Sequence record: PQ201581.1
Direction: 5' to 3' (one strand)
Length of the DNA: 33,382 nucleotides
Source: Acinetobacter phage AbIPP1
Numbering within the stretch: position 1 is the first letter of the stretch; each line of letters begins with the position of its first letter. The notes beneath the pieces are model-generated. The model was not told the DNA's origin. It did no database searches and saw only the letters and a list, made by a program, of their open reading frames with translations. The translations under genes were made by a program, and so were the position numbers. Shown here piece by piece: positions 22,071-22,868 of this stretch.

Positions 22071-22093
22071 TCTGTGACATGATTCTTGACATC

Positions 22094-22191
22094 CTATCGT
22101 CATACGCTATCACATCTAATCACATTGCATAATCGTAAGTCGTTGATATTATTAAGAGTGAATTTGATAGCGTGTGATAGTGTTTGATGTA
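22094..22191. repeat. attP-like arm repeats: inverted CTATCGTCATACGCTATCAC / TGATAGCGTGTGATAG plus 10-bp-phased TGATAG direct repeats
   Basis: Direct copies lie at 22165, 22175 and 22185. Inverted copies lie at 22094-22113. All are immediately upstream of the tRNA 3' fragment. Confidence 0.5.
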
Positions 22192-22192
22192 A

Positions 22193-22220
22193 TCGGGTTC
22201 AACTCCCGCCATCTCCACCA
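22193..22220 (+). other. 3' fragment of a tRNA/tmRNA-like gene (T-arm plus acceptor 3' strand plus CCA): putative attP core
   Basis: TCGGG-TTCAACT-CCCG forms a T-arm with a canonical TTCRANY loop. It is followed by CCATCTCC-A-CCA. The matching 5' acceptor strand (GGAGATG) is absent upstream. Confidence 0.6.
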
Positions 22221-22227
22221 AATACTA

Positions 22228-22261
22228 AAAATCCGATCACTTAACGTGGTCGGTTTTTTTT
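22228..22261 (+). terminator. Rho-independent terminator after the lysis operon
   Basis: CCGATCAC-TTAAC-GTGGTCGG hairpin followed by a T8 run. Confidence 0.7.
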
Positions 22262-22377
22262 GATTTAAACTTATTACTAAGTTCGGAATGTAAAGTTTTA
22301 ATGAGAGTAGAAGGTTGATTGATCTATTTGATAAAGTTCAAAGACAATAAAAGCACTGTTTTCTTAATGAGCTTATA

Positions 22378-22412
22378 AGAAAAAGGCCTCCAATTGCTTG
22401 GAAGCCTTTTAA
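22378..22412. terminator. Bidirectional terminator-like hairpin
   Basis: AAAAA-GGCCTCCAA-TTGC-TTGGAAGCC-TTTT, flanked by an A-run and a T-run. Confidence 0.5.
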
Positions 22413-22417
22413 TATAA

Positions 22418-22504
22418 TGGTACCCGGAGCCGGACTTGAACCGGCACGCTATTACTAGCGAGGGATTTTAAATCCCTTGTGTCTACCAATTTCACCACCC
22501 GGGC
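22418..22504 (-). tRNA. tRNA-Leu (anticodon UAA), type II with long variable arm, CCA encoded
   Basis: Reverse-complement sequence: GCCCGGGTGGTGAAATTGGTAGACACAAGGGATTTAAAATCCCTCGCTAGTAATAGCGTGCCGGTTCAAGTCCGGCTCCGGGTACCA. It is near-identical in the D and anticodon arms to E. coli tRNA-Leu(UAA). The T-loop is a canonical TTCAAGT. Confidence 0.9.
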
Positions 22505-22868
22505 AAAACTTGTCTTTTAACGGCTGCACTGATACCCGCTGCAGTTGCTGGATGTGGGAGGGTGACGTGATAGGATTTACCGTTTCGTTCAAAGTAGATC
22601 TGAATGCTTCCCGATCTAAGCCGCACGCCTTTCGGTAGCGTATGTCTGCTTGCTGTGTCATCCATTTATTATATCCTCTGATTGAGTAATATAGGTTACC
22701 ACTCTCCTTCATCCAAACAACGTTTTCTGGCCATGCTTGCTTACGGTGAGTAAGTTTCTGTTCTGCAATACCAGTTAATTCAGCAAATTGCTTAGCGTCT
22801 ACCCAATCAAGCGGGGTTAAACCCATTTGATGGAGTAGGTCGATTGTTTGTTGAGATTCATTTGGCAT
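22455..22868 (-). CDS. Excisionase/HTH_17-family DNA-binding protein (Xis-like); ORF runs into the tRNA-Leu gene
   Basis: A GGAGAGTGAG RBS is present. The N-terminus (LTPLDWVDAKQ...WPENVVW...IRGYNKW) resembles lambda Xis (LTLQEWNARQ...) and DUF1233-like excisionases. The stop codon is the TAG inside the tRNA variable arm. Confidence 0.55.
   Translation of the reverse strand: MPNESQQTIDLLHQMGLTPLDWVDAKQFAELTGIAEQKLTHRKQAWPENVVWMKESGNLYYSIRGYNKWMTQQADIRYRKACGLDREAFRSTLNETVNPITSPSHIQQLQRVSVQPLKDKFCPGGEIGRHKGFKIPR

Follow-up and report, generated by a model that had tools for sequence, protein, structure and literature searches.

Specialised transduction by faulty excision is textbook genetics, and lambda bio is a plaque-forming specialised transducing phage that derives from the aberrant excision of a prophage. 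The position next to the att site is also where accessory genes are thought to arise via imprecise excision. Such events are usually inferred from markers in laboratory lysates and are seldom read from the genome of a natural phage. The ssrA gene, which encodes tmRNA, is a common integration hotspot for tyrosine-integrase elements. In these elements the core of the att site duplicates the 3' end of ssrA and integration regenerates the gene, and several kinds of element share the same site, including an island with a P4-type integrase in two of the loci that we compared (L008 and L009). When excision takes the attR flank along, loss of int is expected (bioRxiv 10.1101/2020.10.28.360172). Here we analyzed the whole 33,382-bp stretch deposited for Acinetobacter phage AbIPP1 (PQ201581.1; hereafter the window), for which Psychrobacter phage Psymv2 (JF270478 / NC_023734) is the only close phage record. 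The literature that we searched contains no account of the AbIPP1 genome or of Psymv2-type transducing variants. We suggest, with a probability of about 0.82, that the window is the genome of a Psymv2-like temperate Psychrobacter siphophage that was released by aberrant (illegitimate) excision. Read in this way, it is a well-resolved natural instance, itself new, of an already known mechanism, and because both parents are public (a prophage with intact int and the host ssrA/tRNA-Leu locus), the breakpoints can be placed to the base.

To begin with the closest phage, the BLAST comparison found Psymv2 and the window collinear round the whole circle. Base 1 of the window is the start codon of terS, and the last 77 nt of the window (33306-33382) match 76 nt of Psymv2 (12076-12151) that lie directly 5' of terS, indicating that the window is a complete circular permutation of the genome. 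Since the end of the window is thus contiguous with its start in Psymv2, no integrase is hidden just outside the window, which the original prediction had named as a point to be checked. The two phages share their genome architecture; across the late region's first 7.4 kb they are 86.8% identical in nucleotide sequence, and their xis genes and Int N-termini are 92% and 96% identical, respectively. The window is smaller than Psymv2 (33,382 bp vs 35,725 bp); its size and its intact terS, terL and HNH genes appear compatible with packaging, and the cI, cII-like, cro and xis genes are intact as well. In both genomes the endolysin gene is the last late gene and adjoins the P arm of the att site, so that the left side of the locus in the window reads as follows.

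21576 to 22070, plus strand: endolysin gene (GH108 and PG_binding_3 domains by Pfam; homologous to Psymv2 orf50)
22071 to 22193, plus strand: phage P arm (88-98% identical to Psymv2 and 10 related prophages/phages)
22194 to 22220, plus strand: att core of 27 nt, CGGGTTCAACTCCCGCCATCTCCACCA (identical to the annotated attP of Psymv2)

The attP of Psymv2 is annotated across the ends of its record (JF270478, 35712-35725 plus 1-13), and all 27 of its nucleotides are those of the core. The core is made up of the 3' half of a T-arm, an acceptor 3' strand and CCA, as the original prediction had described for a remnant of a tRNA 3' end. However, the same 27 nucleotides (27/27) form the 3' end of tmRNA genes called by ARAGORN in Psychrobacter genomes, and the gene that terminates in the core was called as a tmRNA with the tag ANDETYALAA. 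Judged by these matches, the source of the core is the last 27 nt of host ssrA and not a tRNA gene. A scan of species-representative genomes for the core returned more than 120 loci, mostly in Psychrobacter, Moraxella and Acinetobacter. The two prophage ends were also located: the attR flank in two Psychrobacter lysogen contigs (L006 and L010), attL in a prophage (L132), and both ends in a full lysogen, Psychrobacter sp. 16-MNA-CIBAN-0192 (L094 and L052), where attL (ssrA and int) and attR lie 38.6 kb apart on one contig.

The P arm of the window resembles that of Psymv2 (88-90% identity) and carries the same TGATAG, CTATC and TGACAT repeats. TGATAG stands at 22165-22170 and 22175-22180 and is followed by TGATG at 22185-22189, in a 10-bp phase; the composite TGATAGN4TGATAG has a single occurrence in the window, where 0.01 would be expected. 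In addition to these repeats, which the original prediction had picked out correctly, we found two copies of TGACAT at 22075-22092 (0.09 expected) that it had not mentioned, and inverted CTATC motifs at 22094-22113. The inverted repeat that it had proposed is also present: 22100-22126 pairs with 22161-22187 (27 nt, 74% complementary), with a 16-nt core that is 88% complementary. Related P arms with as little as 80% overall identity keep all of these repeats. The TGATAG and TGACAT repeats are surviving, putative protein-binding sites of the P arm. The P' arms of the relatives contain two TGACAGG or TGACATG repeats. TGACAK is found in the distal P arm and again, two or three times, in the P' arms of related elements, which include elements from Acinetobacter with integrases of 60-68% identity. 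This recurrence probably makes TGACAK the better candidate for the arm-type sites of Int, and the core-proximal TGATAG pair, which differs from TGACAG by one transition, may represent further arm sites or Xis sites. Of the arm repeats, the P-arm set alone survives in the window.

The difference between the two phages lies directly 3' of the core. Psymv2 has its own P' arm (with TGACAGG twice) and a full gene for a 385-aa integrase, on the minus strand, at this position, and the same order, core and then P' arm with a tyrosine integrase of 384-385 aa, is found in Psymv2 and six relatives (L003, L007, L011, L132, L094 and L146). In the window, on the other hand, the core is directly followed by host DNA and a tRNA-Leu gene, and the segment has no match to the P' arm of the intact phages.

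22221 to 22516, plus strand: host chromosomal DNA of 296 nt, read as captured (B' arm and beyond; similarity to attR flanks)
22233 to 22261, plus strand: predicted intrinsic terminator of host ssrA, 8-bp stem then T8 (terminator scan; fold -13.8 kcal/mol, z = -4.5)
22381 to 22410, minus strand: predicted terminator of the host tRNA-Cys/tRNA-Leu operon, 13-bp stem then U-run (fold -18.5 kcal/mol, z = -4.9)
22418 to 22504, minus strand: intact tRNA-Leu(UAA) gene, leuZ-like and apparently host-derived (ARAGORN; Rfam RF00005, 52.6 bits vs a gathering score of 29)

The complete tRNA-Leu gene had been called from the letters alone, and ARAGORN and Rfam confirmed it. Its origin is shown by the chromosomal loci. 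In the two lysogen contigs with the attR flank, the same endolysin, P arm and core are followed by the terminator, a spacer, tRNA-Leu(taa), tRNA-Cys(gca) and then chromosomal genes (SSF transporter, FdhD, molybdopterin oxidoreductase, cytochromes c). These contigs are 96.9% identical to the window over 22071-22516 and 96.6% identical over 21512-22516. The homology of the window to the host is continuous across 323 nt (22194-22516), and both ends of the 296-nt segment match an unoccupied ssrA locus. This empty, prophage-free site, in Psychrobacter sp. UBA6766 (L101), has an intact ssrA gene followed after 540 nt by the opposed tRNA-Leu terminator, tRNA-Leu and tRNA-Cys, and the terminator 3' of its ssrA is that of window 22221-22262. 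The host flank of L006 is syntenic with this locus (82.7% identity over 4.6 kb). In all three chromosomal copies (L006, L010 and L101) the hairpin of 22381-22410 is kept beside tRNA-Leu, tRNA-Cys lies upstream of tRNA-Leu, and the tRNA-Leu sequence is 100% identical to that of the window. In three further Psychrobacter genomes tRNA-Leu and tRNA-Cys lie 2-3 kb from ssrA. These comparisons indicate that the neighbouring tRNA-Leu is the gene that follows ssrA in the host, and that it was captured along with the host terminators. The spacing of 198 nt between core and tRNA-Leu is documented in the L006/L010 host alone, and a scan of species-representative genomes for the core followed by the tRNA-Leu 3' end at 180-210 nt gave zero matches.

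The host segment ends within the integrase gene of the phage, and the features around the joint are the following.

22516 to 22517, no strand: novel joint between host DNA, ending at 22516, and phage DNA, beginning at 22517 (BLAST boundaries and base-level comparison)
22492 to 22665, minus strand: truncated integrase ORF of 57 aa, that is, int codons 1-50 plus 7 foreign codons (tblastn)
22455 to 22868, minus strand: excisionase-like gene, homologue of Psymv2 orf2 (92% identical over 118 aa; phrog_9668/539, excisionase)

Similarity ends exactly between 22516 and 22517 for the host parent (L006/L010) as well as for three phage parents (Psymv2, that is L001, L003 and L132). From 22517 on, the window is 99.86% identical to prophage L132 over 1449 nt, and L132 itself continues through an intact 384-aa int and the P' arm to ssrA, which constitutes its attL. 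On the phage side the joint is inside int, after codon 50 and 296 nt from the core, and on the host side the break is 12 nt upstream of tRNA-Leu. Compared with L003 and L132, the window lacks ~1089 nt of phage sequence, comprising the P' arm together with int codons 51-384, and has 296 nt of host sequence in exchange. The joint appears flush against the nearest parents, although its base-level reading is provisional because the parents are inexact, the best host flank being ~97% identical. We considered a microhomology-mediated joining but rejected it, as the joint has no shared bases, although TCTT adjoins both breaks; a simple join via TCTT would have given two T fewer than are present (again provisional). 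As a consequence of the joint, the xis reading frame runs on into the antisense strand of tRNA-Leu, which encodes 19 residues in place of the final 4 of Xis. The Xis-like gene next to the site had been noticed correctly in the original prediction, as its match to the excisionase PHROGs shows.

One illegitimate recombination in a lysogen would account for every feature described so far. In the prophage the normal order is ssrA, attL, int, xis and so on to endolysin, attR and the ssrA terminator, followed by tRNA-Leu/tRNA-Cys on the opposite strand. Instead of attL recombining with attR under Int and Xis, the DNA would have broken within int, past codon 50, and this end would have been joined to a host break lying 12 nt 5' of tRNA-Leu. 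The resulting 33.4-kb circle retains every lytic, regulatory and packaging gene together with the P arm, the core and xis; it has lost the P' arm and integrase codons 51-384 and gained the 296 nt with two strong host terminators and tRNA-Leu(UAA). By its organization, therefore, the site is an attR-type hybrid (P arm, core and host B' arm; P-O-B') in an int-truncated genome. The original prediction of an attP-like site was right in that this is a genuine attachment site of a tyrosine integrase, but an attP has phage arms on both sides of a core that equals the 3' end of the target gene, and a cognate integrase gene. Here the core is the 3' end of ssrA, the right side is the host B' flank in place of the P' arm, and the cognate integrase gene is lacking. 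The window differs in these two respects, the integrase no longer encoded and the attR form, from the other ssrA-targeting elements. What is found instead are the marks of a transducing genome: host DNA that adjoins the core and runs collinear with the chromosome next to attR, phage DNA lost in return on the attL side, and a joint made outside the att core by what appears to be illegitimate recombination, with the base-level detail provisional.

Formally, the structure equals that of a lambda bio phage able to form plaques, whose att site is of the attR type and which lacks int. As in lambda bio, host DNA past attR is joined to the phage and phage DNA from the opposite end (int) is lost, the att site is a P-O-B' hybrid, the lytic functions are all kept, and the joint was made without site-specific recombination. 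The window departs from lambda bio in its tiny substitution (a gain of 296 nt against a loss of ~1089 nt), in the survival of xis and of 50 codons of int, in ssrA as the target, and in having captured a tRNA gene where lambda bio has a selectable operon.

One rival reading is an assembly or curation chimera, in which an attR host flank was wrongly connected with an internal part of int, for instance when reads of a lysogen were assembled together with those of its induced phage, and the molecule does not exist. The junction is unique to this window: the junction 23-mer had zero matches in the viral and metagenome contig collections, and an exact-protein look-up of the fused 137-aa Xis product found no match on record. 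The similarity to the best parents is also unequal (99.86% on the phage side vs ~97% on the host side), which likewise speaks for a chimera. Among IMG/VR contigs, eleven contain the P arm and the core, and each continues either into a P' arm of the phage type (int can be seen in the two of these with sufficient sequence) or into a host-type flank that runs into the chromosome; none of the eleven rejoins the early-left genes. However, the two parental sites share no repeat that could have misled an assembler, and both flanks have the right order and orientation for a prophage at ssrA. The geometry of the product is exactly that expected from a single illegitimate crossover in a lysogen, and the sequence closes to a circle of plausible packaging size (33.4 kb vs 35.7 kb for Psymv2). 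Taken together, we consider a chimera unlikely, with a probability of about one in ten.

Aberrant excision also fits the state of the integrase gene. With the Psymv2 integrase as a tblastn query, residues 1-50 alone were found (22665 to 22516, minus strand; 48/50 identical), and the remnant is identical to the int gene of L132 at 149 of 149 nucleotides. It covers part of the arm-binding domain, with a weak, sub-threshold match to Arm-DNA-bind_2 in Pfam, and is devoid of the catalytic domain; in an intact relative the Phage_integrase domain occupies residues 196-365. We searched for recombinases by domain scans of all ORFs of at least 150 aa and by tblastn with the Psymv2 integrase. No tyrosine- or serine-recombinase domain (Phage_integrase, Resolvase) was detected by Pfam in these ORFs and PHROGs added none. 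A recombinase hidden among the unannotated ORFs was considered and rejected, as their Pfam and PHROGs matches are tail, regulatory or unknown. The statement that the window has no integrase thus holds for a functional enzyme, but it overlooked the 50-codon 5' remnant of a tyrosine int gene. Since this remnant matches the intact gene at every nucleotide, the loss of the integrase was very recent. The same observation weighs on the proposal, one of the explanations offered originally, that the site is a true attP of a phage lineage that gave up its integrase and whose normal lifestyle depends on a host or helper recombinase. It is true that cI, the cII-like gene, cro and xis are intact and that integrase-bearing ssrA prophages are common in Psychrobacter and could give Int in trans. 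Yet the right-side P' arm that Int needs is gone, with host DNA in its place, the undecayed remnant points to a fresh lesion rather than an adapted state, and no second genome with the same architecture was found among the collections searched. We therefore regard an evolved helper dependence as very improbable, while the other explanations offered, a lost integrase and a rearranged prophage, proved correct in that int is truncated after codon 50 and followed by host DNA.

The tRNA-Leu gene lies on the early-left strand, downstream of xis and the int remnant. As with phage-borne tRNAs and att-adjacent morons in general, the intact tRNA gene has lysis genes on one side and att-proximal early genes on the other. 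Genes for tRNAs are frequent in phages, a tRNA-Val gene is present elsewhere in the window, and the region adjacent to att is a classic moron slot (compare the acyltransferase in L011), so the segment could be imagined as a moron from another phage, with the similarity of the host flank due to phage-to-host transfer. We dismiss this as hardly credible, because the same tRNA-Leu, tRNA-Cys and terminator stand beside ssrA in the prophage-free chromosome of UBA6766, tRNA-Leu is close to ssrA in three or more other Psychrobacter genomes, the segment starts exactly at the end of ssrA and includes the host ssrA terminator, it was found on no phage or viral contig searched (the tRNA-Leu terminator junction being likewise absent from the viral contigs), and the phage does not use TTA+TTG codons more than the host samples do. 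Here, in contrast to the usual phage-borne tRNAs and morons, it is possible to name the donor locus, the breakpoints and near-identical parents, and the tRNA is 100% identical to the host copy and without a promoter region of its own. It has kept only 12 nt of its native upstream sequence, and we found no promoter-like sites in 21900-23400; therefore, tRNA-Leu is predicted to be made solely by read-through from the early-left (xis) transcript. We also considered that it might compensate for the codon bias of the phage, but TTA+TTG make up 45% of the Leu codons in the phage vs 54-55% in the host samples, and this idea was rejected. Most likely, tRNA-Leu is a passenger.

If the genome arose in this way, the att site gained a host tRNA and two terminators and the phage lost self-integration in one step. 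The phage would have no capacity for site-specific integration of its own. RecA-mediated recombination across the 323 nt shared with the host (22194-22516) could still lead to lysogeny, as could Int provided by a resident relative. Whether the window represents a viable, circulating, int-less temperate phage caught just after tRNA capture, with lysogeny dependent on RecA or on borrowed Int and with a 57-aa Int fragment that might regulate or interfere, is more doubtful, and we put this forward as a tentative possibility; if true, it would provide direct natural evidence for the long-assumed route by which tRNAs and att-adjacent morons are acquired. For annotation, our results suggest caution, as an 'attP' without an integrase or a 'phage tRNA' on the att side may in fact be an attR hybrid that has taken up a host flank, and lifestyle predictors based on integrases would misclassify such a genome. 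As for the right-hand late region, exact-protein look-ups of three late proteins adjoining endolysin returned no record in the collection, and the exact source lineage of this region is absent from the collection searched. The exact endolysin protein, on the other hand, is encoded on at least 24 public contigs. The second tRNA gene of the window, for tRNA-Val, is located at 32364-32440.

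Directly after the prophage attR, two public contigs (L008 and L009, at about 10500-12200) carry an island with a P4-type integrase (Arm-DNA-bind_3) and HicAB, and this arrangement of attR and a second integrase island is tandem occupancy of the host tmRNA gene, ssrA. The spacer from ssrA to tRNA-Leu is 198 nt in the window and in the lysogen contigs L006 and L010, 540 nt in the prophage-free locus of Psychrobacter sp. UBA6766 (L101, 4677-5216), and 2-3 kb in the ssrA loci L015, L086 and L108. This range of lengths suggests that elements have repeatedly inserted and decayed at the ssrA hotspot.

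Upstream of the endolysin, the tail modules of L002, L003, L005, L006 and L007 are quite dissimilar despite an identical endolysin and P arm (the attachment-site arm 3' of it), and several of these contigs contain a diversity-generating retroelement (bAvd and RVT_1) there. The endolysin/att block seems to travel as one unit within this highly mosaic prophage group. In the related contig L011, one gene is inserted with the endolysin on one side and the P arm on the other:

L011 10385-12301, minus strand, acyltransferase of 638 aa (Acyl_transf_3 and SGNH)

This site is the classic lysogenic-conversion moron position. A moron may also be present in the window at 31001-32029, where the GC content is 35% vs about 44% elsewhere and which includes the following ORF:

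31271-32029, ORF of 252 aa

Its product has no Pfam match and only a weak PHROG match, to a PHROG of unknown function.

The window contains a second tRNA gene, with the HNH and terS genes downstream:

32364-32440, plus strand, tRNA-Val(gac)

Its slot matches that of the 'tRNA-OTHER' (11082-11160) of Psymv2, the closest phage record, which suggests that this tRNA gene, in contrast to the captured tRNA-Leu, is a resident of the phage genome. A 12-nt inverted repeat (92% complementary) between the captured spacer (22336-22347) and the novel joint, which its other arm spans (22510-22521), is probably due to chance.

In the late region, four ORFs deserve mention:

2224-3504, portal
3353-4321, ClpP-protease
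6759-7340, plus strand, Lipoprotein_Ltp type (superinfection-exclusion family), amid head and tail genes
19355-20440, plus strand, tail-region ORF with a Peptidase_M14 (zinc carboxypeptidase) domain

Psymv2 has a superinfection-exclusion gene annotated at the place equivalent to the Lipoprotein_Ltp-type ORF. A Peptidase_M14 domain is unusual in a siphophage distal tail module. The coordinates listed for portal and ClpP-protease give an overlap of about 150 nt, which the Psymv2 annotation also has; the true ClpP-protease start codon is probably further downstream than 3353.
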